DNA from: a virus | Direction: 5' to 3' (one strand) | Virus record (IMG/VR): IMGVR_UViG_3300036828_000667 | Location: 1 to 64,000 of that record | DNA length: 64,000 nucleotides | In this document: positions 20,547 to 63,514 of the stretch, one piece after another | How the letters are laid out: every line of letters starts with the position of its first letter | Numbering within the stretch: position 1 is the stretch's first letter | Notes under the pieces: generated by a model | The model's database searches: none | What the model was told of the DNA's origin: nothing | The model's input: the letters and a program-made list of their open reading frames with translations, nothing else | Translations under genes and position numbers: made by a program

Positions 20547-20611
20547 ACGGACCATTCCGATCCGAAGCCAGCCCCACCGTGCCTATCCCCTCCCCAGCGA
20601 ACCGAACCACA
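20547..20611 (+). ncRNA. pentamer element E2, 12-13 units
   Basis: TTGACA 20508; CC-NNN register; ends CCGAA CCACA. Confidence 0.82.
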
Positions 20612-21104: not shown

Positions 21105-24100
21105 TCACGCAGCCATTTTAGTTTTAAAGGTGTACTCAATACGCCCTTTAACTGTAATATAAGCAGATGGATCAGCTGACCTAATCCATACGATCTCACG
21201 ATCGGCTATCAAGTGTATATCGCCTTGATTGTCTACCGAGTATGGCATAGTCGGAGTGATATCAAGTGATGGAGTATATGCTATGAAACACTCACCACGT
21301 CTGACTTCAAGAACTATGCCTATTGCAATATCTTGAACTAATCCAGACGCTATAGGTATCCAATCGCCCTTGACGTTGATCCACTCAAACGACAACATTC
21401 CCCCAGGCTGGAGGAAGTTTGGAAGATACCAGAATTTATTGGTAACGTATCCCCAGACTTGAGAAGTCTTAATATAAGCTAGAACACCACGTAGCTTACC
21501 AGCAATCGTAGTAACCAACGATCTACTATATAGAGATAGAGTTAGATAGACTGATCTAGATCCTTGGACAACCTGTGTCTGAGAAAGACGGATTAGTACC
21601 TCAATAGCAGTTTTAAGGAAATTCTGATTGATAACGATATTGACAATATGAGCCACAGTACCCTTAACTAATAAAATAGAAGAGTCGTATATCAATACGA
21701 TCTTAGCACGGTTCGGCCTGGGAAGCAAGAGGATTTCCCCTGAGACAAGGCCTACCCTCTTGACGACCGAAACAAGTCGCTGCACACTCTCAGCCTGAAT
21801 AAACGACACCAGCCTTCTGGCAATAGAGCTTCTCGTTATAATCTGAGACTGGAAGAGTAAGAACTGGCGAAGAGACGATCTGAGAGAGACCAACGTCTCT
21901 GGACTTACTACAGACAAAGACCTTGTAAATAGCTTACCAAAAGAACTGGTTAACACCCCATGACTAACAAACGTAGCTAGCCTGGACAACAGCTTAACAG
22001 CAGACACCAACTCAGATTGAGTCACAGCAATGATTCGACTTGGTATCTTTCCTATCGCAACGACACTAGAGTTTATAAAAGAGAGTGTCCTGTAGAATGA
22101 GACCATAGCAACTCTAGTAACAATCTCAGGATGCAATATGGATACGGTTTTTAGAAATGCTCTTTGGTTAAACTGAGTAACCACTTCGTGGCTAACGAAG
22201 GAAGCCAGTCTACCTGTCAGTCTAATCAATGAGTAGAGTTGAGACTGAGTGAGTGTTGTAAGCCGACCGACAACCCTAGAGACCGAAGCGACCTGCGACT
22301 GAGCAAATACTGCTAGCTCTGGACGCGTAACCTGACGAGTAATCAGTTGTCCAATCAGTGTAGACAAGGTCTTAAAAAATGCCTTCTGATTGAACTGAGT
22401 TACAATCTCGGGACTAGAGAACTGTTTGATCCTACTAAATACCTTAACTAGACTAATAGCTTCACTTGAAACCAGAGACCTTATACTAGTAATCGCTCTA
22501 GCGGACGACAGTATCTGAGACTGTTGAAATATCCCGTAAGCTGTATTCCTGGTAGACATAAGTATGGATATAGCTGTATGAACTATTATAGTTCTACTTG
22601 TCAAAGTTATATGTGTAATGAATTCTCCAGTCGAGAAGGTAAAGGTTTTGGTAGTTGAAATTGCCCTAGTGAAAATTTGTGGATTCGTAGTTAGAATCGA
22701 CTGTAGTTTAGTTCTGATAGCTGAATAAGTCAGAACTTCTGCGAGTGTAGTCTTGACGATCTTAACAGCCTGACGTACGGCTGTAAGAGCTTCACTGCTG
22801 GTAGCGACGATCGACCGAGTGACAACCCTAACTAAGAAGACGGCTTCAGAGCTAGCCAACGTCAACATACGCGAAGACAGCCTAACCAGAGACAAGAATT
22901 CAGAACTGGTTAAGGTAACAGTCCTAAAGAACGTTTTGATTTGACTTAAAGACAAACTCTCACTAATCGATAGGGTAACTACTCTAAACCTACTAGAGAC
23001 CCTGGCTAATGTCAGAGACTCAGGACTTGCAGTAGTTATAACATGAGAAACACTACCTATAACATCTGCATACAATTCAGAACTAGTAATAGATATTGTA
23101 CGTAGTAAGCTCTTGACTCTAGTCAGGGTTAATACTTCATTGGTAATCACTGTTATAATACGGGAAATACTACCTATTACGTCTGCATACAATTGAGAGC
23201 TAACAAGAGATATGAGTTTTTGGTTTACTACTACACCGGACTGAAACTGCGTAACTGCAGTTACTAGTTCTCCAATCGAGAATACCCTGAATCTACCAGG
23301 AATCTTAGCTAGTGTAAGTGTTTCTCCACTAACGACAGCTACGATATGTGAAATGCTACGTATTATACCAGCATACAATTCAGAGCTAGTAAGAGTTATG
23401 GTACGTAGTAAGCTCTTGACTCTAGTCAGGGTTAATACTTCACTGCTAGTAACTATTATAATATGAGAAATACTACCTATAACATCTGCATACAATTGAG
23501 AGCTAGTAAGATATATCGTGCGTAGTAGACTCTTAATTCTAGTCAGAGTCAGTACTTCATTGCTAGTCACTGTTATGATATGAGAAACACTATCTATTAC
23601 ATCAGAGTAGAATTCGGAACTGGTAATAGATACGATATGAATATACTGTCTAACTGTAGTTATCGTCTCGACTATCGACAACGTGATTGTTCTAAACTTA
23701 CTTGAAATCCTAGCGAGTGTAAGTATCTCTGGACTAGAAATCTGTAAGAACTTGGCAGTAATCTTTGCAGTAACTCTAGAGACTAATTCAGGATCGACGA
23801 AGACCAGCATCTTAGTAACTGATCTAATAAGATACACAGCCGAAGAATTGAAGAAAACCGTAACTCTCGATATGCTCATAACAAATTTTGATAGACTAGG
23901 TTGAATAACAAGTAACTTACCTGTTACGTTCTTATTAACGAAGTTAGCCCCAGTAATCATAGAAAGCATAGGGTTAATCGTAACAAGCTTTCGAGTACCA
24001 AAGGTTTGATACGTTGGAATAGCAGTTAGTGTCTCCGCAATCGACAACGTAACCGTCCTAAACCTACTAGAAATGCTGAATAGCGTAAACGCCTCTGGAT

Positions 24101-25025
24101 TAAATACGCCTAAAACTCTAGATATATTCGATATCCTAGTAAGACTCTCAGAACTCGTTAAAGTTATTGTCCTAAAACTCTGTACAGATCGTATACCAGT
24201 AACTACCTGATGTGAAGTTATAGTAGTAATTGCTTTCTGACGTAGAATAGATCGTATACCAGTAACTGCCGGATGTGAAGTTATAGTAGTAATTGCTTTC
24301 TGACGTAGAATAGATCGTATACCAGTAACTGCCAGATGCAAAGGTGCAACTGTTATCGGCAGTTGGGTTACAACTGGACCACCACCACCAGAAAAATCAG
24401 GTGTAACAATAGTAGCTGTACCAATTCTAAATAGTACGTCAGAGCTACCGTTAGCACTTGCTGTAGTCAGTACCCATTCAAGCTGAATGAACAAATACTC
24501 ATTACTCAATACTATAGGAGATCCGCTGTTCATAACAATCGTTATACTAGAATTAGTGTCTACAGTAGTTGATAAGGTAATATTCGCACATTGAAAAGTT
24601 GCTTGTAACTTAGTAGCTGCAGAACCATCGGCATTTGCCGATTTCCATACCTGGGCAGCAATATTCCCAATAGCGCCAGCTACAGTAGCACGCATATTAA
24701 AATTAAAAGTCCAAGCTGTGCCTGCAAAAGTACCTGTATATGCCGGAGTTATAAAACTATCACCAGCCCCAGCATTAGTAGCATCACTACCTTTTGTTGG
24801 ACCGGAAGAAAAAATACCAATTGGATCAGTAAAAGCAGAAGCTGAAGAAGTAGATGATGCGCCTAACCTAGAAGCAAAATATGGCGTACTAGTAGAAGTA
24901 GTACCTACAAGCCAGCCATAGGTGGAGTTGGCTGCAGTCGGAGCAGTACCGCCATCTTGTAATTGACCAAAGAAATTAGGTGACGGAGCAGCCGTACCAA
25001 GGATATACAGTGTTTTAATAGCCAC
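21105..25025 (-). CDS. second giant S/T/I/V/R-rich repeat protein with globular N-domain
   Basis: 1306 aa; T.TSSE.LT repeats; shares TGANFV.KNVTGKL with 4551-9284. Confidence 0.72.
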   Translation of the reverse strand: MAIKTLYILGTAAPSPNFFGQLQDGGTAPTAANSTYGWLVGTTSTSTPYFASRLGASSTSSASAFTDPIGIFSSGPTKGSDATNAGAGDSFITPAYTGTFAGTAWTFNFNMRATVAGAIGNIAAQVWKSANADGSAATKLQATFQCANITLSTTVDTNSSITIVMNSGSPIVLSNEYLFIQLEWVLTTASANGSSDVLFRIGTATIVTPDFSGGGGPVVTQLPITVAPLHLAVTGIRSILRQKAITTITSHPAVTGIRSILRQKAITTITSHQVVTGIRSVQSFRTITLTSSESLTRISNISRVLGVFNPEAFTLFSISSRFRTVTLSIAETLTAIPTYQTFGTRKLVTINPMLSMITGANFVNKNVTGKLLVIQPSLSKFVMSISRVTVFFNSSAVYLIRSVTKMLVFVDPELVSRVTAKITAKFLQISSPEILTLARISSKFRTITLSIVETITTVRQYIHIVSITSSEFYSDVIDSVSHIITVTSNEVLTLTRIKSLLRTIYLTSSQLYADVIGSISHIIIVTSSEVLTLTRVKSLLRTITLTSSELYAGIIRSISHIVAVVSGETLTLAKIPGRFRVFSIGELVTAVTQFQSGVVVNQKLISLVSSQLYADVIGSISRIITVITNEVLTLTRVKSLLRTISITSSELYADVIGSVSHVITTASPESLTLARVSSRFRVVTLSISESLSLSQIKTFFRTVTLTSSEFLSLVRLSSRMLTLASSEAVFLVRVVTRSIVATSSEALTAVRQAVKIVKTTLAEVLTYSAIRTKLQSILTTNPQIFTRAISTTKTFTFSTGEFITHITLTSRTIIVHTAISILMSTRNTAYGIFQQSQILSSARAITSIRSLVSSEAISLVKVFSRIKQFSSPEIVTQFNQKAFFKTLSTLIGQLITRQVTRPELAVFAQSQVASVSRVVGRLTTLTQSQLYSLIRLTGRLASFVSHEVVTQFNQRAFLKTVSILHPEIVTRVAMVSFYRTLSFINSSVVAIGKIPSRIIAVTQSELVSAVKLLSRLATFVSHGVLTSSFGKLFTRSLSVVSPETLVSLRSSLRQFLLFQSQIITRSSIARRLVSFIQAESVQRLVSVVKRVGLVSGEILLLPRPNRAKIVLIYDSSILLVKGTVAHIVNIVINQNFLKTAIEVLIRLSQTQVVQGSRSVYLTLSLYSRSLVTTIAGKLRGVLAYIKTSQVWGYVTNKFWYLPNFLQPGGMLSFEWINVKGDWIPIASGLVQDIAIGIVLEVRRGECFIAYTPSLDITPTMPYSVDNQGDIHLIADREIVWIRSADPSAYITVKGRIEYTFKTKMAA
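24186..24330. repeat. 63-bp in-frame tandem repeat, about 2.3 copies
   Basis: agatcgtataccagtaact at 24186, 24249, 24312. Confidence 0.9.
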
Positions 25026-25081: not shown

Positions 25082-25783
25082 CTAAGACACGTTCCACTGA
25101 GTCTGAGTAGGCCAGCTGTATACGAGAGGCCATGGTAATGTTGGAGGAGTAAACCCACCTACAGGAAATATCGCTGTATTTGATATTCTGAGTTCGTCAA
25201 TGTAACCATTAAAAGGAGAGCCAGCAGTAGGGAAGACACTATTTCCTATTCCTACGCTAGCGGTTGCAGTACCAATATTCTGAGTGCTAACACCACTCCC
25301 GCTTGCTGACGGTACGCCATTAAGAAACCCAGTTACGTTATTAGAACTGTCTCTTTGCCATGCGACGTGATACCACGTACCTGTAACAGGTGTAAAATCA
25401 ATATGAAAAAAGTGAGTACCGGGTTGATCACTGAAATACAAATTAAGACCACCCCCTGTAATCCAATTGATAATATTAGTACCCATACCTAACATACATA
25501 TATTACCAGCTGTTGAATTCCAATTAACCCAAAAATCAAAAGTAAAAGGCGAACCAGACGGGAAATAGAAATCAGGACTAGGATCTATGGCTAAACCATC
25601 ATAATTACCACCTGTAGTGCAATTTAGTGATCCACTACCAAAGTAAGCGTTACTAGATATTGTACCGACACCTCCCTGAACACTGTATGGCGCTACATTG
25701 TGTCCATTACCAGAGACATCAGTAAAGGTGCTAGAACCTGGGGGACCATCGAAATGGCAAACGAACAGAGGATTAGTAGCCAT
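25082..25783 (-). CDS. LamG/concanavalin-A-like domain virion protein
   Basis: FT.DFW, WYHVA..R, FNGYIDELRIS. Confidence 0.82.
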   Translation of the reverse strand: MATNPLFVCHFDGPPGSSTFTDVSGNGHNVAPYSVQGGVGTISSNAYFGSGSLNCTTGGNYDGLAIDPSPDFYFPSGSPFTFDFWVNWNSTAGNICMLGMGTNIINWITGGGLNLYFSDQPGTHFFHIDFTPVTGTWYHVAWQRDSSNNVTGFLNGVPSASGSGVSTQNIGTATASVGIGNSVFPTAGSPFNGYIDELRISNTAIFPVGGFTPPTLPWPLVYSWPTQTQWNVS

Positions 25784-28700
25784 TATGAAGCATAACCATA
25801 GGACGAGCCATCGGCTATGATCTTAGAATGATCATCAGTAGTCCCCAACCATTGCCAGCAGTTAAACTTTGTGATCCCTTGGTCAGTTTTAAGAAAAACA
25901 TCTACGATTGGAGTCTGGGATAGAGGACCGCCTTGGCCTCCTCCAGTTGCTCCAGTCATACTGAACGAAACAACATCAGATAACCAATTAGCAAAACCTG
26001 AAAAGGAGTCAGCACCAACCCCACCACTCGGACCAGTTCTAGTAATAGTTCTTAACCCAGCCTGAGTTAGATCAATAGTAGCTGTAAAGTTGTTCTGGAT
26101 TAAATTGGAATCAAAAGCATTTGATGTTATACTAAAACGAAGACTGCTTGAACCTGTATAGATTGCTGGTCTGAGCACGTTTATGAGAAACGTATCAACG
26201 TTTCCCCACAAAATCATAGCATCAACGTAACCTGCGATAGACTCTTGCCAACCAAAGAATTCACGACGGCCTCGACTGAACAAAGGATCTTCAATAGAGC
26301 CATTTAGATCAGCAATCATACGTCCGCCTGTATTTCCAAATGCTGTCAACCTAGGCATTGGATGAGGACGGAATTTCAGAGCATTAGACACAGCAGTAAC
26401 AGTACCAGTAGCCGCAGAAAGATTAACTGGAGAACCGCCTTTCGAGGTGGCTACTTGAAATTGTCCCGTTGTCATACCAGCTGATAACACATAAAATGTC
26501 GTACTTTGATCAACAGGAAAAGTGCCGGTTGTTGTAAAATGGACAGGAGTATCAACAGATAAACTATGACCTGACCACAAAACAAAATTACCAGAAAATG
26601 TAACTGTAGATTTAGTACTGTTTCCAACAGGCTTTGATGTTAGAGTCGTCTCGAAACAGAAGTTGTTACTACCATCAGTAAAGATATTACCAACCATAAA
26701 TGGAGCACCCATATTCGCATGGACGCCTGCCATATCAGTAACAAACATTTTATGACCAGGAATAGCCCATTGGTTTATATTAGCCATTGAAGTGAGCGGA
26801 ATACGGAATGTACCATTGTCCCACGTGAACCTCTCGATCATATTATAAATCGCGGTAGGGCCGTTAGCATCGTCGAAGCGAGTAACAATATCAACTTTGT
26901 TAATTTCATTACCAAGCAATAAACAACTCTCTGTCACACCAAAAGTAGGACCAAATACCATATTTTGAATTTTACTTTCTTTGAACACGTTTCTTTTGAC
27001 AGTACCATACATACCAGCAAATTTGCAACCTTGTACACTAAGAACATTAGTAGCAGCACTAGCAAGATTAAGGCTAATATTTGTACCCTCGCAATGTTTA
27101 TATTCTAAATATTCTATGTTCTTATCTACCTCAATCCCGGTATTATCACCACAAACTCGACATCGTTCGAAGATCACACGTTTAGAGGTGCTAGGTTGTA
27201 ACCCCTGGCCATCTAAGGCACAGTCCTCAAATTTGACGAATCTGCCAGTCGCTATACTAGGTCCCCAGGGCTCTAAGGCACGAAAACCTCTAAATATTTG
27301 CTCTTGATCCCAGCCTGCACCCAACGCATAAATACCAGCTGGTCCTATTGGAGCATATTGATTTCCTCCGTCATTAGTACCAGGAAAAATCATAGGCCAT
27401 TTAGCTGAGAAGCTACAATACGTAGGTTCACTAATAGTGACAGCACCAGAAGAGTTAATCGCTATGATCTTGACATACTGACACACACCAAAATTAGGTG
27501 GGTTTGAGGCATTTACAACACTAGGATCAACAGGATTAGCTACATAGAAATTTTGTGTGTCTATCCCAGCAACTCGAATCCATTGACCAACATAAAAAAG
27601 ATTATATCTAGTAGGATCTTTAAGCTGGAGAACTGTAGAACCATGCTGGACTGAGTTGATAAGAGCCCACTGTCCAAAAGCAGCAGCATCAGTATTACCA
27701 CAGGATAACTGATCAAATACCGCACCATAAGCCTCTATAAGCATTTTCCTCTGAGAACCACTTCCTGGAACATAAGCGATTTCGTGAGGAAATCTATAAT
27801 ATCCAGGAGGAATAACAGTCTTCACCCACTCTCTATTCAGTGGAGTAACAAACAATGGATTAGAGAAACCAGTGTGATTACCCTGACCACCATCTGAAAA
27901 TGTAATAACTGATCCACCTGGAGTAGTTGATATCTTGAACGAAGTCCCAGGAACAAGCCCAGTTGCTGAAGCATAGAATAATGTAAGCTTGCATGGTTGA
28001 GTAGGTGAAATAAGGTTTTGAGGTAATGCTTGATCTGATACAAAGCAAACTGGAGTATTAGCTGTGATGTTATGACCGCTCCATTGTACGTCTGAGCCTG
28101 AGAACGTCACAGGACCATAAATGCCTGAAGCACCTCCGCTAGTGCTGACTGGCACGTTAGGAGGACTAGGAAGGACACCTCCGACTTGCCATGCATTATC
28201 AGCTGAGAATGAAAACGTATCCTTCGTGAAGTGTTGTCCAGGAGTACCTTGTGTGTAGTCGAGTACATAGTATGGCTGAAGAAGAGTTATTCCTGATGGG
28301 GCTGGCATACCTCCAGGTATGAAACAAAAACAGTCATTGCGTCTCATATCATGGTTAGGCCAATGAACGACAGTCGTACCGCCGCTATCGATAGTTACAG
28401 GATAACTACCACTTCTAACTTGCCGAGAGATCGAAGATGCCCAATCCCACCAAGGACCAGAAGTACCATCTATCACTTGATTCCATGTGACACCGTCCCC
28501 ATGAACCCCATAATCTCCAACATTCAATACAGGTAACTGTCCGGTAACTCTTTCCCAGTATTTACCGTCAGCAGACTGGACATTGTTAAACATTGGTCCT
28601 TGTGTTGTAGCTGGTTTCCAGAAACAGAAACCTTCCTTGTCACCAATCCCCAATGTGACTACGAAGCTCATACCAGGGTCTAATGTAGCTGCCTGTAACT

Positions 28701-28815
28701 GAGCAATAGAATCAAATGGGATAATCATACTAAGCAAAGTCCGCATAGTAGCGGCACTAATAGCTCCAGTACCAGTCGTCGGCAGACTTGAGTTTATGAC
28801 ATCACGAACTGTCAT
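25783..28815 (-). CDS. tailspike/receptor-binding protein, paralogue B
   Basis: YGVHGDGVT, beta-helix-like core, colinear with 28831-31884. Confidence 0.75.
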   Translation of the reverse strand: MTVRDVINSSLPTTGTGAISAATMRTLLSMIIPFDSIAQLQAATLDPGMSFVVTLGIGDKEGFCFWKPATTQGPMFNNVQSADGKYWERVTGQLPVLNVGDYGVHGDGVTWNQVIDGTSGPWWDWASSISRQVRSGSYPVTIDSGGTTVVHWPNHDMRRNDCFCFIPGGMPAPSGITLLQPYYVLDYTQGTPGQHFTKDTFSFSADNAWQVGGVLPSPPNVPVSTSGGASGIYGPVTFSGSDVQWSGHNITANTPVCFVSDQALPQNLISPTQPCKLTLFYASATGLVPGTSFKISTTPGGSVITFSDGGQGNHTGFSNPLFVTPLNREWVKTVIPPGYYRFPHEIAYVPGSGSQRKMLIEAYGAVFDQLSCGNTDAAAFGQWALINSVQHGSTVLQLKDPTRYNLFYVGQWIRVAGIDTQNFYVANPVDPSVVNASNPPNFGVCQYVKIIAINSSGAVTISEPTYCSFSAKWPMIFPGTNDGGNQYAPIGPAGIYALGAGWDQEQIFRGFRALEPWGPSIATGRFVKFEDCALDGQGLQPSTSKRVIFERCRVCGDNTGIEVDKNIEYLEYKHCEGTNISLNLASAATNVLSVQGCKFAGMYGTVKRNVFKESKIQNMVFGPTFGVTESCLLLGNEINKVDIVTRFDDANGPTAIYNMIERFTWDNGTFRIPLTSMANINQWAIPGHKMFVTDMAGVHANMGAPFMVGNIFTDGSNNFCFETTLTSKPVGNSTKSTVTFSGNFVLWSGHSLSVDTPVHFTTTGTFPVDQSTTFYVLSAGMTTGQFQVATSKGGSPVNLSAATGTVTAVSNALKFRPHPMPRLTAFGNTGGRMIADLNGSIEDPLFSRGRREFFGWQESIAGYVDAMILWGNVDTFLINVLRPAIYTGSSSLRFSITSNAFDSNLIQNNFTATIDLTQAGLRTITRTGPSGGVGADSFSGFANWLSDVVSFSMTGATGGGQGGPLSQTPIVDVFLKTDQGITKFNCWQWLGTTDDHSKIIADGSSYGYAS

Positions 28816-28830: not shown

Positions 28831-31800
28831 TTAAGAGGCATACCCGTAGCAAGCGCCGTCGGCTATGATCTTAGAATGATCGTCCACAGTCCCTAACCAT
28901 TGCCAACAGTTAAGCTTAGTGATTCCTTGGTCAGTTTTAAGAAAAACATCTACGATTGGAGTGGCGTTAAGAGGACCACCCTGACCTCCTCCAGATGCTC
29001 CAATCTGCCATATCCCTATGTAATCAGATAACCAATTAGCAAAACCTGGGAAAGGAAGTGAGTCTGCTCCGATTGGAGTACTTGTAGTAGTTCTAGTAAT
29101 AGTTCTAAGTCCTGGTTGGGTTAGATCAATCGTGGCTGTGAAATTGTTCTGGATCAGAAGAGAGTCAAAAGCATTAGCTGACATATTCAAACGAAGACCG
29201 CTTGAACCTACATAAGTCGCTGGTCTGATCACGTTTATAAGGAAAGTATCTACGTTTCCCCAAAGTTGAATTCCATCAGTATATTGACCAGTATTTCCAT
29301 CTGACCAACCAAAGATCTGACGACGACCTCTACTGAATAGCGGCTCTTCGATAAGAGAGCCACACATATCACTAATCCCTCGTCCGCCTGTATTTGCAAG
29401 TGCTGTTAGTCGAGACGTGGGATGAGGACGGAATTTAAGAGCGTTAGATACCCCTGTATGAGTACCAGAACCTCCAGTGAAAGTAACAGGTGAACCTCCC
29501 TTGGAAGTGGCTACTTGGAAAGTTCCTGTAGTTAAGCCAGCTGATAATACATAGAGAGGAAAGCTTTGATTAAACCCAGAAGGCAAAGTTCCTGTCGTAA
29601 GGAAAAAGACCGGAGTATTAACAGGCAAGTTATGATTTGCCCATTGAACATTCGTACCAGAAAACGTAACTGTAGCTTTAGTAGTGTTCCCTACAGGCTT
29701 GGAAGAAAGAGTCGTCTCAAAACAGAAGTTACCACTACCATCGTTATAAACATTTCCAATTACAAATGGCATACCCATATTTTGAAATGCACCTGCCATA
29801 TCAGTGACAAAACACTTATTACCAGGAACACACCACTGATTTATAGGCCCCATCGCGGTAAACGGAATACTAAATGTGCCGTTATTGTACGTAAATCTTT
29901 CAATCATATTAACAATAGGATTTACCATACCAGCATCATCGAAACGATTAACAGTATCAATATAACGTATTTCGTTACCAAACAACAAACAGTTATCTGA
30001 CATTCCAAATGTAGGGCCAAAAACCATGGTACCGAGTTTACTATCTTTAACAATAGTTCTTTTTACTGTACCTCCTACGGTATAAAATTTAGAACCTTGT
30101 ATACTGAGAATATTATTACAAGCACTAGCAATATTTAGAGAAATTTTATCACCTTCAATATGAGTATATTCATCATGCTCAGAGAGTTTGTCCACTTCAA
30201 TCCCGGTATTGTAACCACAAACTTGACCACGTTCAAAAACTGTACGTCTAGATGACCCTGGTTGAACTCCTTGACCTTCCATTCTAACATCAAAAATATG
30301 CATAGTCCTCCCGTTAGAACTCTGAGGACCCCATGGTTCTAGCGAACGCATGCCAAAAGATACAATATCACAATCCCATCCTGGACCCATACCATAAATA
30401 CATGCTGGACCACTCCCAGGTATACTATCATCTGACATACCCGGATAAATCAAAGGCCATTTAGCTGAATAAGTATAAGCTGTAGGCTCGCTAATACCAA
30501 TGGCTCCAGATGAATTAACTGACGTGATCTTGACGTATTGAAAAACCTGTAGATTGATCGGCCATGAGTCAGGCCCTTGACTCGTAGGCGGAGCTTGATA
30601 ATGATTCTGTAAGTCCAAACCACCAATAAAAATCCATTGACCAACATAAAAACGATTATACCTAGTAGGATCTTTTAGCTGAAGTGTCGTAGCACCATTC
30701 TGGACTGAATTGATAAAACCCCAAGCTTTAGGATTCTGCATAATAACAGAACTACCATCAGTATTACCAACACCAGTAGAATCAAATATAGCACCATAGC
30801 TTTCCATAACCATTTTTCTCTGAGAACCACTCCCAGACTGTGCAGCAGACTCATGAGGCATTCTATAGTATCCAGGAGGAATAACGCTCTTCACCCACTC
30901 CCTATTCAGTGGGGTAATAAACACAGGATTAGAGTAACCAGTAGCATTACCAGAGCCACCATCTGTAAACGTAATAGGAGACCCACCTGGAGTAGACGAG
31001 ATTTTAAATGAAGTCCCTGCAACAAGTCCTGTCGATAAGGCATAGAAAAGCTGAAGTTTGCATGGTTGATTAGGTGGAATTAAAATCTGAGGTAATGCTG
31101 CATCTGAAGTAAAGCACACAGGTGTATTAGCTATGATATTATGTCCACTCCATTGCACATCTGATCCTGAGAACGTCACAGGACCAAAGATGCCCGAAGC
31201 ACCTCCAGTAGTACTAACAGGTACATTAGGAGGACTAGGCAAAAGACCACCGACTTGCCATGCATTGTCAGCAGAAAAGGCAAAGCTATCTCTGGTAAAG
31301 TATTGTCCAGGAGTACCTTGTCCCAGATCGAGTACAAAATATGGTTTGAGAAGAGTAAGTCCAGTTGGGAGTGTCATCCCTCCTGGTATGAAGCAAAAGC
31401 AATCGTTACGCCTCATATCATGCTTGGGCCAGTGAATGACCGTAGTACCTCCACTGTCAATAGTAGCTGGGAAACTCCCTCCTCTGTTCCGTCGAGTGAT
31501 TGTAGCTGAAAAATCCCACCATGGACCCGACGAACCATCATCTACTTGATTCCATGTAACACCATCACCATGAATTCCGTATTGTCCAACATTCAAAACT
31601 GGTAATTGACCTGTAACTCTTTCCCAGTATTTACCATCGGCAGACTGGATGTTATTGAACATTGGACCTTGGGTAGTAGCTGGTTTCCAGAAAGAGAAAC
31701 CTTGCTTATCACCTATCCCTAATGTTACTACGAAGCTAATCCCTGAATCTAAGGTTGCTTGTTGTAGTAGAGTAACAGAATCAAACTGAACGATCATACT

Positions 31801-31884
31801 AAGCAAGTTACGCATAACAGCAGCAGTAATAGCTCCAGCACCACTACTTGGAAGATACGAATTTATGACATCACGTGTTGTCAT
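28831..31884 (-). CDS. tailspike/receptor-binding protein, paralogue A
   Basis: YGIHGDGVT, beta-helix-like core. Confidence 0.75.
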   Translation of the reverse strand: MTTRDVINSYLPSSGAGAITAAVMRNLLSMIVQFDSVTLLQQATLDSGISFVVTLGIGDKQGFSFWKPATTQGPMFNNIQSADGKYWERVTGQLPVLNVGQYGIHGDGVTWNQVDDGSSGPWWDFSATITRRNRGGSFPATIDSGGTTVIHWPKHDMRRNDCFCFIPGGMTLPTGLTLLKPYFVLDLGQGTPGQYFTRDSFAFSADNAWQVGGLLPSPPNVPVSTTGGASGIFGPVTFSGSDVQWSGHNIIANTPVCFTSDAALPQILIPPNQPCKLQLFYALSTGLVAGTSFKISSTPGGSPITFTDGGSGNATGYSNPVFITPLNREWVKSVIPPGYYRMPHESAAQSGSGSQRKMVMESYGAIFDSTGVGNTDGSSVIMQNPKAWGFINSVQNGATTLQLKDPTRYNRFYVGQWIFIGGLDLQNHYQAPPTSQGPDSWPINLQVFQYVKITSVNSSGAIGISEPTAYTYSAKWPLIYPGMSDDSIPGSGPACIYGMGPGWDCDIVSFGMRSLEPWGPQSSNGRTMHIFDVRMEGQGVQPGSSRRTVFERGQVCGYNTGIEVDKLSEHDEYTHIEGDKISLNIASACNNILSIQGSKFYTVGGTVKRTIVKDSKLGTMVFGPTFGMSDNCLLFGNEIRYIDTVNRFDDAGMVNPIVNMIERFTYNNGTFSIPFTAMGPINQWCVPGNKCFVTDMAGAFQNMGMPFVIGNVYNDGSGNFCFETTLSSKPVGNTTKATVTFSGTNVQWANHNLPVNTPVFFLTTGTLPSGFNQSFPLYVLSAGLTTGTFQVATSKGGSPVTFTGGSGTHTGVSNALKFRPHPTSRLTALANTGGRGISDMCGSLIEEPLFSRGRRQIFGWSDGNTGQYTDGIQLWGNVDTFLINVIRPATYVGSSGLRLNMSANAFDSLLIQNNFTATIDLTQPGLRTITRTTTSTPIGADSLPFPGFANWLSDYIGIWQIGASGGGQGGPLNATPIVDVFLKTDQGITKLNCWQWLGTVDDHSKIIADGACYGYAS

Positions 31885-34436: not shown

Positions 34437-34511
34437 GCATACCGCCCCTCTCCAGGCCGCTGCACGGCATACCGAACCGCCCCTGCCCTGACCAAAGCAC
34501 ACCGCACCATA
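34437..34511 (+). ncRNA. pentamer element E3, 15 units
   Basis: TTGCCA 34401; ends GCACA CCGCA CCATA CTTT. Confidence 0.85.
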
Positions 34512-38055: not shown

Positions 38056-38571
38056 TTATTGAGACCGGTAGCCCAGCTGATCAAGTCTACTCGATATGTT
38101 ACTGTAGACAAGATTGTCGATACCCGTAATATAGTCCAGCGTTTTGTTATGACAGTTGAAAGCGAACACACGCCATGTAACCTTATTAGTTAAGGCTAAT
38201 AGATCGGTCCCGAAGACCTCGACAAAGGATAGGAACAGACTAGCGTTATCAGACTTAGCACTATAGTATTGGCTTAAGACAAACTCATCAAACTCCTCCG
38301 AAAAAGCGGAGAACACCTTCAGAGCAAAACTAGAAATATCAGGAGTGTTATCAGGAACACGGATATCGACTGGGATATCTAGCTTATAGATAAGAGGTGC
38401 AGCCTTATCAAGACCATCTATCTCAGCTTCTTTGAGAGAGATACCACGAGAAACTGGGGAAAGGAATAACCTGCAATCAGCCTTGTCAAGGATCAAAGAG
38501 AGTTCATCGATCTCGGTGTAATCTGTAATTACAGTACCATCAGAAAACTGTACGACTTTATTACAACTCAT
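38056..38571 (-). CDS. hypothetical protein
   Basis: 171 aa. Confidence 0.6.
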   Translation of the reverse strand: MSCNKVVQFSDGTVITDYTEIDELSLILDKADCRLFLSPVSRGISLKEAEIDGLDKAAPLIYKLDIPVDIRVPDNTPDISSFALKVFSAFSEEFDEFVLSQYYSAKSDNASLFLSFVEVFGTDLLALTNKVTWRVFAFNCHNKTLDYITGIDNLVYSNISSRLDQLGYRSQ

Positions 38572-39077
38572 TCCGATCTAGTCTCAGTACAAGCATAAGG
38601 TCCAGCTATACGATTAGCTGCCTCAACATAAGCTTGATGCGCTTCGTCTGGCGTATTAAATGTACCAAGACAAATGTATTTATTATCACGCTTGATTCTA
38701 GCCTGCCATCTATTACCGTTAGCCACTACACCTTTCAGTCCACTGGTAGTATTCTTACGCACACTGTTATAACGATTTTGCGAAGTAGTTGCTGGACGTA
38801 GGTTTGTCCAAATATTATTTGCCTTATTCCTATCTTTGTGATCAATTTCATCTTCTGGCCATTCTCCTTTCATCCACAACCAGATGATACGATGTACCTT
38901 ATAATCCTGTCCTTGATATCTAACTACCACATATCCGAACTTATGAATACGACCTGCCTTAGATCCTATAGGAGTGTTCTTCCTAGGCCTTATTGTCCAG
39001 ATCAGATCACCGGTCAATGGATTGTAATGAAAAATCTCTCTGACAGTATCTGCTGTCAGATCATTTACATATTCCAT
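38568..39077 (-). CDS. HNH-AP2 endonuclease
   Basis: HRIIW, IDHKDRNKANN..NLR, SGLKGV..WQARI..LGTF. Confidence 0.88.
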   Translation of the reverse strand: MEYVNDLTADTVREIFHYNPLTGDLIWTIRPRKNTPIGSKAGRIHKFGYVVVRYQGQDYKVHRIIWLWMKGEWPEDEIDHKDRNKANNIWTNLRPATTSQNRYNSVRKNTTSGLKGVVANGNRWQARIKRDNKYICLGTFNTPDEAHQAYVEAANRIAGPYACTETRSE

Positions 39078-39315: not shown

Positions 39316-39380
39316 CCACTTCACCCCGAACCGACCCGAACCATGCCACCCCGATCTGCACCCGTCCGCTCCATACCACA
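39316..39380 (+). ncRNA. pentamer element E4, 13 units
   Basis: TTGACT 39285; ends CCATA CCACA CTTTTT. Confidence 0.82.
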
Positions 39381-39401: not shown

Positions 39402-39920
39402 TCATTCGGCGGACCACTGGATGATAAGCTTGTCGTTAGATAGACCAGCCTTGAAACTGCGATTATTGGCGATTTGTTCGACTATCTGTCTGGCACGAAC
39501 AATGGTCACTTCTTTTTCCATGATTCCTAAAGCTTCACGAATAGACTTACCTACCCGCACCTTAATCATACCACTACTCCTTGTCGTGCCATCCGAATTC
39601 AACCTACGTCTCCACTCAAGATTACTAGGACGGTTATCAAACCTAATATCATTCAGATGTTTAGCCATATACCCAGGTTTTTTAACCTGTCCAGTGAACG
39701 CAGATAATATAAACCAATGAGAAAGGTAACGACGATAGTGTTTTATAACTACCAAATAACCATCAGGGGTAAGAGTTTGTATTCTAAGTTCTGTCTTCTC
39801 TACGACTCTATGGCCAACGATACCACCCGGTAACACTCTAATACGACCATGATCAGAAGCTTGGTGATAAGGCCAATCTGGAATGTCTTTCCAGATCTCA
39901 CCCTTGTGTCCCCGAATCAT
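39402..39920 (-). CDS. NUMOD4-HNH protein fused to an extra C-terminal domain
   Basis: EIWKDI..QASDHGRIR; HLND...DNR.SNLEW. Confidence 0.75.
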   Translation of the reverse strand: MIRGHKGEIWKDIPDWPYHQASDHGRIRVLPGGIVGHRVVEKTELRIQTLTPDGYLVVIKHYRRYLSHWFILSAFTGQVKKPGYMAKHLNDIRFDNRPSNLEWRRRLNSDGTTRSSGMIKVRVGKSIREALGIMEKEVTIVRARQIVEQIANNRSFKAGLSNDKLIIQWSAE

Positions 39921-40137: not shown

Positions 40138-40176
40138 CGGTCACCCCTTGACTTCCAAACCAACCCATGCTTACGT

Positions 40177-40258
40177 GACCGTCTATCCCATCCGAACCAG
40201 TCCAATCCTATCCTATGCACACCGCACAGAATGACCTAAGAGAAATCTTAGGTCATTC
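40177..40258 (+). ncRNA. pentamer element E5 (8-10 units) with GAAA-loop hairpin
   Basis: TTGACT 40148; GCACA CCGCA; 13-bp stem 40229-40258. Confidence 0.85.
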
Positions 40259-40263
40259 GCTTT

Positions 40264-40476
40264 TCAATCAGTGTCATAACCATCTGCGCTATAGTAGTTA
40301 TTTTCGTGGTACGGACACTCTTCTCTCATGAGAGCTAAGCAACGGCGAATAGATGCACTGCTTGTCCCATAGGACTCAACCACGTGGTCGCACCTTGAAC
40401 AAGTAACCTTGACACTGGGAACTTCCCCGTGATCACCTTCCAATTCGATTTCATCTATGGTACATTTTACCTTCAT
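40264..40476 (-). CDS. small Cys-rich protein (contains E5 match)
   Basis: CSRC, RRCL..MREECP. Confidence 0.7.
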   Translation of the reverse strand: MKVKCTIDEIELEGDHGEVPSVKVTCSRCDHVVESYGTSSASIRRCLALMREECPYHENNYYSADGYDTD

Positions 40477-40682
40477 GGCGCATCGTCAGGCCAGTATTTG
40501 AACTGGTTCCTAGATTGCCAATTATATATAGGTTGCCAGATCCCAATCTTCGCTAGTAGCTTCAAATACAATGGAGCGGCAGCATGACAAGCAACTAGCA
40601 TCTGATCGTAATGATCGTTGTGAGCCTTGATCCGGTCAAGAAAGGGAGTCTCTCCCTTCGTATGTTCACCGATTGATCCCAT
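40473..40682 (-). CDS. hypothetical protein (contains E6 match)
   Basis: ATG 40682 after GGAGG. Confidence 0.65.
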   Translation of the reverse strand: MGSIGEHTKGETPFLDRIKAHNDHYDQMLVACHAAAPLYLKLLAKIGIWQPIYNWQSRNQFKYWPDDAP

Positions 40683-40729
40683 ATCCCCCTCCACTTGACT
40701 CACAAAGATTATTTGGCTACTATCCAAAC

Positions 40730-40811
40730 GCGAGCCAAACCGGTCCACTCCACGCCCCTCCTTCGCTTACCGATCCACACAGAATGGCCTGAGAGAAATC
40801 TTGGGCCATTC
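40730..40811 (+). ncRNA. pentamer element E6 (10 units) with GAAA-loop hairpin
   Basis: TTGACT 40695-N17-TACTAT; stem 40782-40811 with two G-U pairs. Confidence 0.85.
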
Positions 40812-41271: not shown

Positions 41272-42384
41272 TCATGGCGTCGAATAGGTCCAGGTGTTGA
41301 TCAGCAACGGCGAAATCCCAGAGATGCCGGTCGCCGCTACAATACCGACCCAAGCCATGGAACCGCCAACGGCCGTTGGAATATCGATACCGGTCCAGGT
41401 ATGCGTGTAACAAGTCTCTCCGGGACAGACACCGTCGGCCGTTACATCATACATGCTGAGCGTCAGCTTGCTACCATCGTAAACGGTCGTCGCCGAGTAG
41501 ACATGCCCAGTCGTGGTGTTTTGCTTATTGCTTGGCGAATTAAGGGCCACTGGACTTGTAGAAAGCTTGTCGACACCGACATAATGATAGTTGGTGCCAC
41601 CCTCACCAGGAATACACGGCGACTGTCCCGGTGCGACATTGCCGGGCGGTTGGGTGTCGGTGCGATAAATCTGCACCGACGAATAAACGAAATCCCAGGA
41701 ACTTGCGACCAGTGGGCTGTAACTATCAAGCTCAAGAGCAAATACACGATCCGGCGGCTCCGGCTGGCTCCAGCCCTGGAAAAATCCAGCCTCGCAACCT
41801 GCACCACCCGAAAAGTGCTTGCCGTTGAAACCCGCAGGATTGTTGGTCGAATTTTGCACGACGAACGCCACATTCTGGCCGTTCGGCACAAAAGTAAACG
41901 TAGATTTGAAGGCTCTCGCGTCTACCTGCGTTTGATAGATCAGACTGGCCCCAATATGCGATAGATTGGCAGGGATCAAATTAACCTGATTGCCCGACAA
42001 TCCCATGCCGTTGGAACCGCTTGCCCAGAATTTCTGCTCGCCACCGGCACTGGGAAATTGCACCCCGCACGAGCCGGACGAAGAGAAGCCAGCCGAGCAG
42101 TCGAATGCAACGACACCCGTGGGTGGCTCGATTGGTTCGATCGGCGGCCGTTCCGGTCGGACACACGGTACTGCTGCAACGTCTACCATGCACAACTGGA
42201 GCTTCTTACCGCCGACTGCAGCATCGGAAGGACACGGCACGGCCGTACCGCCGGTAATGCAAATATTGATGGTCTGGGCATGTGCTGGCCACAACCAAAG
42301 CATTCCGCATATCGCTAACAAGACAACAAAGATGAAAAAGCTCAAAAGACGTTTTTCTTTCTGCAGATTCATGGCAATCCCCAT
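41272..42384 (-). CDS. secreted legume-lectin-like (ConA fold) protein, GC-rich
   Basis: signal peptide; F.STFTF, AFVVQN, FALELDSY, AWVG..AATG. Confidence 0.7.
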   Translation of the reverse strand: MGIAMNLQKEKRLLSFFIFVVLLAICGMLWLWPAHAQTINICITGGTAVPCPSDAAVGGKKLQLCMVDVAAVPCVRPERPPIEPIEPPTGVVAFDCSAGFSSSGSCGVQFPSAGGEQKFWASGSNGMGLSGNQVNLIPANLSHIGASLIYQTQVDARAFKSTFTFVPNGQNVAFVVQNSTNNPAGFNGKHFSGGAGCEAGFFQGWSQPEPPDRVFALELDSYSPLVASSWDFVYSSVQIYRTDTQPPGNVAPGQSPCIPGEGGTNYHYVGVDKLSTSPVALNSPSNKQNTTTGHVYSATTVYDGSKLTLSMYDVTADGVCPGETCYTHTWTGIDIPTAVGGSMAWVGIVAATGISGISPLLINTWTYSTP

Positions 42385-42711: not shown

Positions 42712-43386
42712 TTATTCAAACCTAGCAAAGGAACCAGCTATACGATCAGCAGCTTCAGCATATGCCTTAGCCGCATCCTCAGGCTTATCGAAACAACCCA
42801 AGTGAATTGTTTTACCTGCGTGTCCAATACAAGCTCTCCATTTATCCTTATGACGCCAGACACCCTTAAAACCACTTGTGTTATTCTTCTGCTTTGAACG
42901 ATTATACTTATTCTGTATATCGGTTGCTGAACGGAGATTGTCCCATATATTATTAGCCCTATTTAAATCCTTATGATCAATCTCATCTTCTGGCCAGCTT
43001 CCTGTCATCCAAAGCCATATAATACGATGCACACGATAACTCTGTCCACAAATCTCAACTTGTATATACCCATCGCTGCAAAGACCACCTGCCTTGTCTC
43101 CAGCCATAGCATTACTTGATCGTCCAACTTTCCATGTAAGACAACCAGTCATTGGATCATAGTCAAATAATTGTCTGACTAACTCAAATGTCATACTTTC
43201 TTCAGGCATCTCCACGTCGTTAATAATACAGGAAAGCTCAGTCATGGTTCCAAACTTCCTAGTTTTACTATATAGTCTTATAACCCATGTTTTTAGATAG
43301 GTAAGCGTAGCTGACCTGTCATCAAAGCTGACCTGGACCCCGGCAGACCCCATCTGGCACCCTCCCGGAGCCCTCAGACTGGACAA
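42712..43386 (-). CDS. HNH-AP2 endonuclease (true start probably near 43200-43250)
   Basis: paralogue of 38568-39077. Confidence 0.82.
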   Translation of the reverse strand: MSSLRAPGGCQMGSAGVQVSFDDRSATLTYLKTWVIRLYSKTRKFGTMTELSCIINDVEMPEESMTFELVRQLFDYDPMTGCLTWKVGRSSNAMAGDKAGGLCSDGYIQVEICGQSYRVHRIIWLWMTGSWPEDEIDHKDLNRANNIWDNLRSATDIQNKYNRSKQKNNTSGFKGVWRHKDKWRACIGHAGKTIHLGCFDKPEDAAKAYAEAADRIAGSFARFE

Positions 43387-44223: not shown

Positions 44224-44309
44224 GTAGTAGGTTTTCCTGTTGTGCTAGTTTAACTGAGATAAGGGCGGTAGGTCCCCTCGATCCCTCCCCAGCCCAGCCC
44301 CTCCCGGCA

Positions 44310-45578: not shown

Positions 45579-45633
45579 TATGGTGCGGTATGCTGAGGAT
45601 TGCGATGGTCTGCGCTGGGTCGCTGTGCTAGGC
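45579..45633 (-). ncRNA. pentamer element E9, 11 units
   Basis: TTGACT(-) 45663-45668 N17 TATGGC; ends GCATA CCGCA CCATA. Confidence 0.82.
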
Positions 45634-47188: not shown

Positions 47189-47268
47189 TATGGTGCGGTG
47201 TGCAGCGGTTAGGCATGGGATGGGCGGGCTGGCGACGGCGAGGCACGGGTTGCATTGGTGTGGGTTGG
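47189..47268 (-). ncRNA. pentamer element E10, 16 units
   Basis: follows hairpin 47281-47317; ends GCACA CCGCA CCATA CTTTT. Confidence 0.85.
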
Positions 47269-47325: not shown

Positions 47326-47390
47326 TGCGGTTTGGTATGCTGTGGGCCGGCACGGCTGGGGGTGGCGCGGGAAGGCTTGGCATGGCTTGC
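47326..47390 (-). ncRNA. pentamer element E11, 13 units
   Basis: TTGACT(-) 47421-47426 N17 TAGTCT. Confidence 0.88.
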
Positions 47391-47433: not shown

Positions 47434-47847
47434 TTACCTGATACGCTGCACTAAGCAACCTTCCGATTTTGCCTGCCACGTCCCACACCACTGGCCAGCT
47501 TCAACAGGTCGCAAGATCCACTTTCGTGAATATTCCCAGATCGGAACGACCTTTTTTTCCATGACCTTCTGGCCGTTCTCGTCTAAGACGAGTTTGTTCT
47601 TTTCACCCCGCTTAGACCGTGAGATTTCCTGTGTCCCGACTTGCGTGGCAAATTTCATTTTGACCGCGGACACAGCTGAACCCAAAGTTTTCATGGGATC
47701 GGGCATCTTCTCGGTCTTAGCTGCGAAGAAGCTCTGTCCGACGCCCAATTTATCAAGAGGATATTTGGCGACCCCATTACGGTTACCACGTTTCGACTTC
47801 GGCATTTCCACCGCGTCGATGATTTCAAACGTCACTTGCTCTTCCAT
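47434..47847 (-). CDS. putative DNA-binding phage protein (contains E10 and E11 matches)
   Basis: KYPLDKLGVGQSFF motif. Confidence 0.75.
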   Translation of the reverse strand: MEEQVTFEIIDAVEMPKSKRGNRNGVAKYPLDKLGVGQSFFAAKTEKMPDPMKTLGSAVSAVKMKFATQVGTQEISRSKRGEKNKLVLDENGQKVMEKKVVPIWEYSRKWILRPVEAGQWCGTWQAKSEGCLVQRIR

Positions 47848-49433: not shown

Positions 49434-49805
49434 TTGGACTTGCGCCTAGGATGGAGAATACCCAGGAGGATTGGCAAGATCCTTGGTTACCTGGAAGGGT
49501 TCAAATCCCTACATCCCTTGCCCTTAAGAAAGTTCAACCTTCCACCAAAAATAGGGGAAAGACCTTTGAAGAAAGAAAAGAAGGAGAAGGAGAACAAGGC
49601 ATATACTATAGCCGACGAACTATCCAATTGGCTAACTAAAAACAAAGTAGATATAGGTGATGCTATCGATGCCATGGCTAGGTTAATAGGATTGGCTGTA
49701 GGTGTCAGCGTAGACTATGAGGAAATAGAAACCATACTACAGAATATCTACAAGGAAAGTCTCAAAGCGGCGTACTTTTCGTATAAAAAGAATCAAGCTA
49801 ACTAG
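49434..49805 (+). CDS. hypothetical protein (start probably internal; contains E12 match)
   Basis: helical C-terminal half looks coding. Confidence 0.6.
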   Translation: MDLRLGWRIPRRIGKILGYLEGFKSLHPLPLRKFNLPPKIGERPLKKEKKEKENKAYTIADELSNWLTKNKVDIGDAIDAMARLIGLAVGVSVDYEEIETILQNIYKESLKAAYFSYKKNQAN

Positions 49806-49913: not shown

Positions 49914-49978
49914 TGCGGTTTGGCCTGCAGCGGAGCGGATAGGCTAGGTTCGGATAGGCAAGGAAAGGCGTGGTATGA
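49914..49978 (-). ncRNA. pentamer element E12, 12-13 units
   Basis: TTGACA(-) 50011-50016; ends CCAAA CCGCA. Confidence 0.85.
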
Positions 49979-52382: not shown

Positions 52383-52437
52383 TGCGGTATGGGATGCATG
52401 GGGCAGGTCCGGCAGGGTAAGCGTCGGGGTGGGGTGG
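52383..52437 (-). ncRNA. pentamer element E13, 11 units
   Basis: TTGACA(-) 52469-52474; ends CCATA CCGCA CAATTTT. Confidence 0.83.
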
Positions 52438-56158: not shown

Positions 56159-56437
56159 ATGAAATACTCTAAGGATCGGAGACAAACCATGGATCACGCT
56201 GAACTTCTTGCTAACCTCAATACAGCACTAGACAACTTCGTGAACAGTAGTGATGGAACTAAGCAAGAACTGAAAGATGATCTCGAAGACTTTCGAGACG
56301 ATATAGACGGACGTATCATGGCCCTGGAAGAAGAAATCGAGGAGGAGCAAGGCGAAGATACAGATGAAGATGAAGGAGATGACGGTGAGGAAGCGCCGAT
56401 TGTAGAAACGGGAGAAATGGGAGAAGAGCCGAAGTAA
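56159..56437 (+). CDS. very acidic small protein (contains E14 match)
   Basis: D/E-rich; start probably 56189. Confidence 0.7.
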   Translation: MKYSKDRRQTMDHAELLANLNTALDNFVNSSDGTKQELKDDLEDFRDDIDGRIMALEEEIEEEQGEDTDEDEGDDGEEAPIVETGEMGEEPK

Positions 56438-56445: not shown

Positions 56446-56544
56446 AAGTCATCCTCTGTTTTTGAAATGACAGAGGATGACTTGTGCGGTTTGGTTAGGA
56501 ATGCAGTGGCTCGGCAGGGTTCGCTTCGGTTTGGTATGGTTCGA
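56446..56544 (-). ncRNA. pentamer element E14 (11-12 units) with 3' hairpin
   Basis: TTGACA(-) 56576-56581 N17 TACGTC; stem 56446-56483. Confidence 0.85.
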
Positions 56545-57201: not shown

Positions 57202-57299
57202 GCGAACCGGTCCAATCCGAACCGACCCTATCCCTACCGGACCCTTGCACAGCATACCGCACATCTACCCCTCAGGCTGTATTACACAGCCTGAGGGGT
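57202..57299 (+). ncRNA. pentamer element E15 (12 units) with 3' hairpin
   Basis: TTGACA 57167 N17 TAACCT; stem 57267-57299. Confidence 0.87.
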
Positions 57300-62812: not shown

Positions 62813-62877
62813 GCCTACCGTACCACTCCGACGCCAACCACACCGAGCCGGTCCATACCTTTCCAAACCAAACCACA
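62813..62877 (+). ncRNA. pentamer element E16, 13 units
   Basis: TTGACA 62777 N18 TAACAT; ends CCAAA CCACA CTTTTTT. Confidence 0.85.
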
Positions 62878-63410: not shown

Positions 63411-63514
63411 TCGAACCGCTGCCTTGCTTGCCAAACCGGGCCAAGCCGGCGCGGACCAAACCTCCGCACACCGCACAATGGGAGTAGTCAAATGGCTTGC
63501 AGACTACTCCCATT
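63411..63514 (+). ncRNA. pentamer element E17 (13 units) with 3' hairpin
   Basis: TTGACC 63369; GCACA CCGCA; stem 63477-63514. Confidence 0.88.

Follow-up and report, generated by a model that had tools for sequence, protein, structure and literature searches.

Why does a short tandem repeat spell, five bases at a time, a peptide that the adjoining gene also encodes? We addressed this question for the repeat E5, using a 64,000-nt stretch of viral DNA (hereafter the window) and the whole 113,838-bp genome to which it belongs.

The repeat E5 matches the neighbouring gene at the first two bases of its codons

The E5 tract (40179-40228, + strand) parses directly into ten 5-nt units of the pattern NNN+CC, namely CCG(TC) TAT(CC) CAT(CC) GAA(CC) AGT(CC) AAT(CC) TAT(CC) TAT(GC) ACA(CC) GCA(CA), with CC as the unit end seven times and GC, TC and CA once each. 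Its triplets translate into PYHESNYYTA, and the codons of the neighbouring gene at 40285-40314 (- strand), CCG TAC CAC GAA AAT AAC TAC TAT AGC GCA, give PYHENNYYSA, residues 55-64 of its 70. By re-parsing both sequences, we could confirm that this pairing, proposed in an initial annotation of the DNA, is exact, as is its count of 8/10 identical leading dinucleotides; the separation it had put at about 60 bp measures 57 nt from repeat to site. The remaining two dinucleotides (AG/AA and AC/AG) agree at one base each, which gives 18/20 guide bases (0.90) under the one-base-skip rule of the VIPR systems described below. The site lies in the reading frame of the gene (40264-40476), and the skipped base is its wobble position.

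Scanning the entire genome on both strands with the NN?NN pattern gave the site as the sole top match of E5, and no second site reached 17/20 or more. None of 300 shuffled E5 guides attained 18, the shuffle maximum being 17. The last two units, ACACC GCACA (40219-40228), are conserved 3' units common to most units of the genome; hence the terminal "T A" of the decoded peptide belongs to the common scaffold and is not specific evidence. With the eight variable units alone, the score was 15/16 at what was still the sole top match genome-wide, a level that 0.7% of shuffles get to. Among the seven variable units with a matching dinucleotide, base 3 was identical in three (CCG, GAA, TAT) and a C/T transition in four, and all seven were synonymous. 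A nucleotide-only 21-mer search over the window was not significant alone (16/21, the level of shuffles). The E5 signal comes from codon positions 1 and 2 and from proximity, and the observation is real and highly non-random.

The phage encodes a Vipr homologue with guide units on both sides

Such a code has been described for VIPR (Viral Interference Programmable Repeat) in three 2026 preprints (PMC13142463; 10.64898/2026.04.26.720927; 10.64898/2026.10.15.759431). There, the guide RNA consists of 9-16 pentamers and is coated by a small RAMP protein (with RRM core, Gly-rich loop and thumb), which conceals a fixed GGY. The two variable bases of each pentamer pair with double-stranded DNA, leaving out every third base, which coincides with the codon wobble; binding is possible to either strand, and transcription is silenced as a result (PMC13142463). 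The first paper allows "a related consensus" besides GGY (PMC13142463).

The gene that we call vipr (63534-64175, + strand, to 64000 in the window) encodes a RAMP/Cas7-like protein of 213 aa (phrog_4652). Searched alone against the PDB, it gave one match, "SUSP1 Vipr protein" (36pp, E=4.7e-5), and a profile built from 38 Vipr homologues retrieved the same entry at E=1e-14 over profile positions 16-184, with 169/198 covered. The AlphaFold model (pLDDT 84.6) had Csm3/Cas7 chains as best folds (E about 1e-6), and the thumb Arg (R138 in SUSP1) and the G-loop Arg-Pro are kept. The earlier suggestion of an RNA-guided system with a Cas7-like protein corresponds to this published system. One guide unit stands in front of vipr and ten behind it, where the units are accompanied only by an HNH-like ORF and by a 66-aa fragment of the vipr C terminus (genome 64949-65149). 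In IMG/VR relatives whose Vipr is 58-62% identical, arrays also lie directly behind vipr, and several unrelated contigs carry guide units together with a Vipr gene.

Two observations touch on this arrangement. First, the 66-aa ORF (L001:1949-2149) is a paralogue of the C-terminal part of Vipr (phrog_4652, E=1.9e-9) that sits between two groups of guide units and has the G-loop GLGSMRP, a second CC-type variant; it may be what remains of a second vipr gene, or else a small accessory. Second, IMGVR_UViG_3300036791_000741 (6640-7860) encodes a Vipr with 62% identity to ours and, behind it, 12-13 CC-type guides with a constant CACCACAGGCGACAG between them. This contig looks temperate (integrase, RecT-like and exonuclease genes), and its guides had no match within the 12.5 kb examined.

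E5 itself has the features of a solo VIPR RNA (vrRNA) gene. Besides a small RAMP homologous to SUSP1 Vipr elsewhere in the genome, it has ten tandem pentanucleotides, within the 9-16 of known systems, and its match follows the NNxNNx skip rule at 18/20. The skipped base falls on the wobble on either strand, including the antisense strand of the gene at 49434-49805. The 3' tail of the units is invariable, GCACACCGCAC followed by ATACTTT.. or a hairpin, without a pseudoknot of the SUSP1 kind. Located 23 kb from vipr, E5 has predicted expression signals of its own, being preceded by a -35 motif and followed by a terminator-like hairpin. GGY was not found on the presumed transcribed strand; the strand of promoter, tail and terminator carries N-C-C, which sets this genome apart from the canonical VIPR type, not from the system. 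No CRISPR array of identical 23-50 nt direct repeats was found, PADLOC, NCBIfam and Rfam gave zero matches, and megablast against phages gave none either.

Eight candidate codes were tested on the genome, and only the one using the first two bases of each triplet plus one skipped base (t1t2) was significant beyond the unit itself. Bases t2t3, contiguous triplets, zero, two or three skipped bases, and t1+t3 returned only the trivial period-5 self match, contiguous triplets scoring below NN plus skip. Since only the first-two-bases, one-skip code is significant, E5 is probably a stand-alone vrRNA gene of the phage's own VIPR system. As VIPR was published in 2026, E5 is not categorically new.

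Other readings of the array were discarded. A translated array, or one decoded in 5-base codons by special tRNAs, is at odds with a genome without tRNA genes and with decoded strings that contain stops, and the array is without a start codon or ribosome-binding site. An antisense RNA against the neighbouring mRNA and a protein-binding repeat of the TRAP, Rho or CsrA kind were dropped on the Vipr homology.

About ten dispersed guides resemble a resident gene nearby

E5 is one of a family. The genome contains 33 period-5 CC/GG arrays compared with 0-3 in shuffles; there are about 30 guide-like units of 5-24 pentamers each, some 16 of them in the window, and at least 17 are solo guides scattered over 50 kb of a phage that retains vipr. 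Windows of seven units scoring at least 13/14 genome-wide lie nearly all within 400 nt of their own unit, which holds for ten units. About ten dispersed guides have their matched resident gene within 400 nt, at a match of roughly 0.8-0.9. Shifted-register and reversed decoding controls gave no matches. Over the aligned guide/resident stretches, agreement is 77/90 at codon position 1, 87/90 at position 2 and 24/90 at position 3, and every guide match that was checked keeps the codon phase, in either relative orientation.

One member is E6 (40695-40811, + strand), the solo guide gene paralogous to E5, with a promoter TTGACT-17-TACTAT at 40695-40723, pentamers at about 40732-40781 and a hairpin at 40782-40811; it spells KGTTPFLD and matches KGETPFLD in the resident gene at 40635-40658 (-). 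The guide upstream of vipr (E17, 63431-63472, +) spells EALLKGKGGKSTA, identical to residues 21-33 of the resident Vipr. Behind vipr, the unit at 64193 spells IGVGVMRPERKRQYGQY compared with the resident IGIGVMRPERKRQYGQY, and these two guides flanking vipr match its start and its end. The 16-unit solo guide at 16681-16757 (+) matches 17057-17104 (-) in the gene 16778-17578 at 27/32 (YTFAIKIQYST for the resident YTFAVKIQYST); this target gene is without homologues in IMG/VR. The guide at 20552-20608 (+) matches 20343-20378 (-) at 19/24, with a core of 14/14, and the one at 47329-47385 (CC on the - strand) matches 47626-47661 (-) in a DUF7303 gene at 21/24, with KMKFATQVGT identical. For 49917-49973 (-), the match at 49766-49789 is on the strand opposite the gene 49434-49805 (+), and by its coordinates the skipped base is again the wobble. 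The guide at 56488-56539 (-) scores 13/14 at 56267-56287 (+), in frame in the gene 56159-56437, and that at 57207-57243 (+), which has a terminator hairpin, has a weaker match of 13/16 at 56788-56811 (+).

Not every unit behaves in this way. The solo guide at 47192-47268 (-) has just a weak five-residue peptide match, 41 nt away. No in-genome match was found for the solo guide at 34472-34508 (+), nor for 39316-39377 (+), 45582-45618 (-), 52386-52437 (-) and 62818-62874 (+). The guides of three relatives (L004, L012 and L013) had no self targets within the 11-12.5 kb examined of each. The C-rich, period-5-like stretch at 44274-44305, without conserved end or match, is probably not a guide; it lies where leftward and rightward gene blocks diverge. 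Period-5 matches at genome positions 80872-80903 and 78041-82 are inside coding sequence, one of them in a gene with repeated ..AHPIV.. motifs, and are not guide units.

This family bears on the simplest alternative, that E5 is a C-rich period-5 intergenic repeat, such as a protein-binding or curvature element, whose likeness to the neighbouring gene is accidental. The short length of the match speaks for it, and it is refuted by the shuffles and the sole top genome match of E5, the outcome of the code test, the same relation in about ten units and the linkage of such units to a Vipr gene in unrelated contigs. We consider coincidence extremely improbable.

The guide RNA probably corresponds to the CC strand

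We then considered which strand of E5 is transcribed. A promoter-like site precedes the repeat on the + strand (40148-40176), with a -35 element TTGACT (40148-40153), a 17-nt spacer and a weak -10-like TTACGT (40171-40176); a consensus scan did not call it because of this weak -10. The -35 region is common to E5 and E6. More generally, 13/18 dispersed units have TTGAC[AT] on the CC strand 31-56 nt (mostly 37-44) before their first CC, for an expectation of about 0.055 per unit, and the motif is unenriched on the other strand or on the other side. Downstream of E5, a tail hairpin (40229-40268, +) consists of a 13-bp stem (40229-40258) followed by GCTTTTCAAT and was called as intrinsic-terminator-like (-18.8 kcal/mol, z -7.7). 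Read on the CC strand, units throughout the family have their constant part 3', and in about half of them a stable hairpin comes next.

The E5 and E6 cassettes are paralogous, and their hairpins differ by one fully compensated pair and two further changes. The latter are G.U pairs on the + strand and C.A mismatches on the - strand, and the E6 hairpin pairs fully only on the + strand (-19.7 compared with -14.2 kcal/mol). It was the core hairpins that were informative in this comparison; the energies of whole 95-nt flanks did not separate the strands. Furthermore, the unit tail CC-ATACTTTATCAATT aligns at 11/14, in the same orientation, with GG-ATATTTTATTGATT of GG-type relatives. In SUSP1 the GG strand is the vipr strand, as it is in 31 distinct loci of IMG/VR with Vipr proteins 27-45% identical to ours. 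CC is found on the vipr strand in our genome, in its three closest relatives and in one further lineage (5 loci). In our genome vipr and the arrays are co-oriented, as in SUSP1.

The protein differs between these two groups as well. In SUSP1, G1 and G2 are read by D177 and W178 (10.64898/2026.04.26.720927). The G-loop has D/E followed by F/Y in 31/31 GG-type proteins, and CC-type G-loops have V-M in four loci and S-M in one locus and in the 66-aa vipr fragment. At the beta-1 residue equivalent to SUSP1 H17, GG-type proteins have Asn or His and the V-M clade has Asp. The association between G-loop and scaffold comes from one or two lineages and represents few evolutionary events. As for composition, 292 of 350 pentamers carry CC and 44 carry GC, and the base before CC is a purine in 60% on the CC strand, which means that it lacks the constancy of the Y in GGY. 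Together, these sequence comparisons lead us to argue that the scaffold was changed, not inverted, in the CC-type clade. Placing [N-C-C] on [G1-G2-Y3] would keep a pyrimidine in the pyrimidine-only pocket with its conserved Arg and would free the position whose Asp reader is lost, the guide dinucleotide staying in place.

The canonical alternative is that the RNA is the GG strand (- at E5), an ordinary GG-N-NN vrRNA antisense to vipr with AAAGUAUGGUGCGGUGUGC as 5' leader. The GG-strand framing is then exactly as published (GG, one base, NN), TGATAAAGT, which precedes the cluster units, can be read on that strand as an extended -10, and the 60% purine at base 3 of the CC strand becomes a weak pyrimidine preference. 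Against this, the -35 motif, the terminator and the G.U pairs of E6 all indicate the CC strand, a promoter scan found no - strand promoter adjoining E5, the vipr strand is the RNA strand in SUSP1 and in the 31 relatives, and the G-reading residues would have been lost in the very clade in which GG remained strictly kept. Hence we regard the GG strand as unlikely, and the RNA very probably corresponds to the CC strand.

The third base follows the genetic code without copying the resident gene

The initial annotation had taken base 3 of each unit as a sign that the repeat originated from its target. We examined this with all units of the five strongest guides, in alignments set by the two guide bases alone, because alignments based on peptides would bias the test. 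First, in split (two-fold) codon boxes the purine/pyrimidine class of base 3 agrees with the resident wobble in 26/28 cases (permutation p<1e-5), compared with 8/20 in four-fold boxes. Second, the base is identical to the resident one in only 7/28 split-box and 2/20 four-fold cases, at or below chance, when about 17 identities are expected at saturation. With all ten pairs the deficit was weaker (20 identical third bases for 26.6 expected, p=0.055). Third, in the unit behind vipr only ATG is shared with the resident gene, 15/16 aligned codons being different, and those of two-fold boxes differ in both directions. Fourth, 9/13 aligned Leu, Ser or Arg codon pairs use the other codon family.

The contrast between split and four-fold boxes looks like the mark of two protein-coding sequences that drifted apart while selection preserved their common peptide; neither a free scaffold base nor a base read by class would separate the two box types. 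The part of the claim that stands is that base 3 is in codon register and codon-aware, and a derivation of the E5 guide from, or its aim at, a coding sequence like the neighbour in codon register is supported. Since the third base is rarely identical, the present neighbouring copy is not the source, which is a diverged allele or the neighbour since recoded. Copying as such remains one interpretation, as a third base read by the Vipr clade gives the same pattern. Either the guides were made from a diverged homologous allele that is the true target, or the resident genes were selected to differ from them with the third base counting. It is possible, if rather doubtful, that the base 5' of CC is either read (a triplet code) or a frozen wobble copy, and that guide and recoded resident gene form a linked weapon-and-antidote pair. 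If true, the resident gene has mostly been recoded to another synonymous codon, and to the other Leu/Ser/Arg family where possible; the pair could spread among related phages by recombination, and this would be the first sequence trace of VIPR guides written from coding DNA in codon register.

E5 may silence alleles carried by rival phages

The neighbouring gene (40264-40476, - strand) encodes a Cys-rich protein of 70 aa ending in ...CPYHENNYYSADGYDTD, without Pfam or PHROG family. The homologue search that had been proposed as a check yielded five viral contigs at 56-61% identity, 2/5 of which also carry vipr. The gene homologue occurs together with VIPR arrays or vipr on IMGVR_UViG_3300050821_001888 (19-569) and on two further contigs (L029 and L031), and this gene family and VIPR travel in the same phage group. 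None of the five homologues was a better target than the resident gene, the best E5 match there being 15/20. Likewise, pattern scans of IMG/VR and metagenomes, for an E5-spelled allele and for the E5 unit, found no rival allele that fits E5 better, and no Asn-or-Ser version of the E5-spelled allele was found in metagenomes.

Natural VIPR targets are rival phages, satellites and other VIPR systems, and solo guides exist (PMC13142463; 10.64898/2026.10.15.759431). On this model, the + (CC) strand of E5 would be transcribed from the sigma-70-type promoter near 40148-40176 to the hairpin at 40229-40268, giving an RNA of about 85 nt with [N-C-C][N-N] units in place of [G-G-Y][N-N]. By analogy with SUSP1, Vipr protomers would coat this RNA, one per unit, hide NCC and present NN to double-stranded DNA, and binding would block transcription. 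E5 would then silence the allele of the same gene in closely related phages that share the cell, and the resident copy, which differs by one Asn/Ser codon and by wobble bases, would be partly protected. As the guide adjoins the resident copy, guide and resistant allele would be inherited together; they would be kept close because a recombinant with the guide but without the resistant allele would silence itself. By analogy with the known systems, we lean slightly towards the silencing of rival alleles, with a linked and recoded own copy, as the purpose of E5.

The resident match of E5 (0.90) is above the threshold of 0.8 used in the papers to call targets, and the phage's own gene may thus be bound. 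Published sets contain no self matches of 80% or more (PMC13142463), so that the near-self matches found here differ from what was described, and self scores are lower than non-self scores (10.64898/2026.10.15.759431). Solo guides could accordingly be read as programmable repressors of the phage itself, Vipr-E5 at 40285-40314 acting as a roadblock or timer of the leftward operon. With resident matches of 0.79-0.91, five guides are at or around the threshold, and VIPR silences rather than cuts, on either strand, so that self-binding need not be lethal; the guides matching the start and end of vipr would suit autoregulation, and the guide-beside-target layout would represent cis-regulatory modules. 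The absence of such matches from the published sets, and the lower self scores there, are unfavourable to self-regulation. Moreover, every guide has one to several mismatches to its resident gene, the switches of Leu/Ser/Arg family look like escape and not tuning, target sites lie anywhere in genes and not near promoters, and the below-chance wobble identity is left unexplained. We therefore hold self-regulation to be rather unlikely, below the silencing of rival alleles.

Genome context and implications

The phage is only distantly related to known phages: in its terminase it shares 37.5% identity with Pseudomonas phage QdP_Psa3 and 34% with Xanthomonas phage phiXF1, two phages of about 114 kb. 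It carries at least four HNH genes (AP2-type homing endonucleases) on the - strand (38568-39077, 39402-39920, 42712-43386 and L001:3253-3807), which cluster in the region of the solo guides E4-E6; two of them (repeat families D11 and D20) are paralogous, with 73-74% identity over parts of their length. Elsewhere on the - strand, 25783-28815 and 28831-31884 are adjacent tandem paralogues of about 1010 aa with 72-84% DNA identity over long stretches (families D2-D5, D7, D12 and D16). Internal repeats of 63-405 nt at 22980-24374 and 8074-9144 (-) belong to genes of 1306 aa and 1577 aa, which look like repeat-domain structural or fibre proteins. A 370-aa ORF (41272-42384, -) with an N-terminal signal-like segment and without PHROG family lies in a stretch of GC 0.49, compared with about 0.43.

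This genome addresses two questions, where VIPR guides come from and how a phage avoids silencing itself. The GG to CC switch together with two loop residues makes a testable prediction of scaffold specificity and offers a route to orthogonal guide/protein pairs. The roughly ten near-self guides bear on self/non-self discrimination and on the linkage between guide and resistant allele, and the codon-like free third base suggests either that coding sequence was the model for the guides or that three bases are read in this clade. Finally, about 30 guides in a lytic-looking 114-kb phage show the possible size of an arsenal.

Comparison with known systems

The Cas7 backbone (Csm3/Cas7) of class 1 CRISPR systems has the same fold, with one protomer for a fixed number of bases and a thumb that interrupts pairing. 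However, VIPR has a period of 5 with 2 bases paired and Cas7 a period of 6 with 5 paired, and CRISPR repeats, Cas1/Cas2 and a nuclease partner are lacking here. Free-standing homing endonucleases of phages are alike in logic only, as a selfish weapon located beside a gene whose resident copy is resistant and acting in mixed infections; in contrast, the weapon here is RNA-guided and expected to silence, not cut, and there is no evidence of its copying into the rival genome.

Non-canonical VIPR arrays (10.64898/2026.10.21.760802) share the period of 5, Vipr-like folds and a fixed trinucleotide other than GGY. In the portion of that text available to us, the scaffolds named are GAC, CAC, WGT and TGH, and NCC, covariation of the G-loop and targets are unmentioned. 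The solo vrRNAs of F5 satellites and of VIPR-null SUSP1-like phages (10.64898/2026.10.15.759431) are likewise stand-alone, wobble-aligned guides, including guides that match the start and end of vipr, and their lower self than non-self scores are discussed as avoidance of autoimmunity. Here, in contrast, vipr is kept alongside the solo guides, and the layout of some ten guides beside their targets is not described in the accessible part of the text of that study.

The type II VIPR of Escherichia phage SUSP1 is similar in several respects. Both have a homologous small RAMP, guides in which about 9-16 pentamers precede a constant 3' part, a code of two bases per unit that skips the codon wobble of the target, targets on either strand, and one guide upstream of vipr with the array downstream. 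They differ in the scaffold (N-C-C with a free first position here, G-G-Y in SUSP1), in the G-loop (GVMRP instead of GDWRP), in the beta-1 residue (Asp instead of His/Asn) and in the tail (a C/A-rich motif of short length, in some units with a plain hairpin, instead of a pseudoknot). No vap gene, typical of VIPR but not universal, was recognised here, and self matches of 0.8 or more are present where the paper found none. Compared with VIPR as described so far, what is unusual in this phage is the NCC scaffold with its covarying residues, the solo guides beside resident genes and the codon-like third base.
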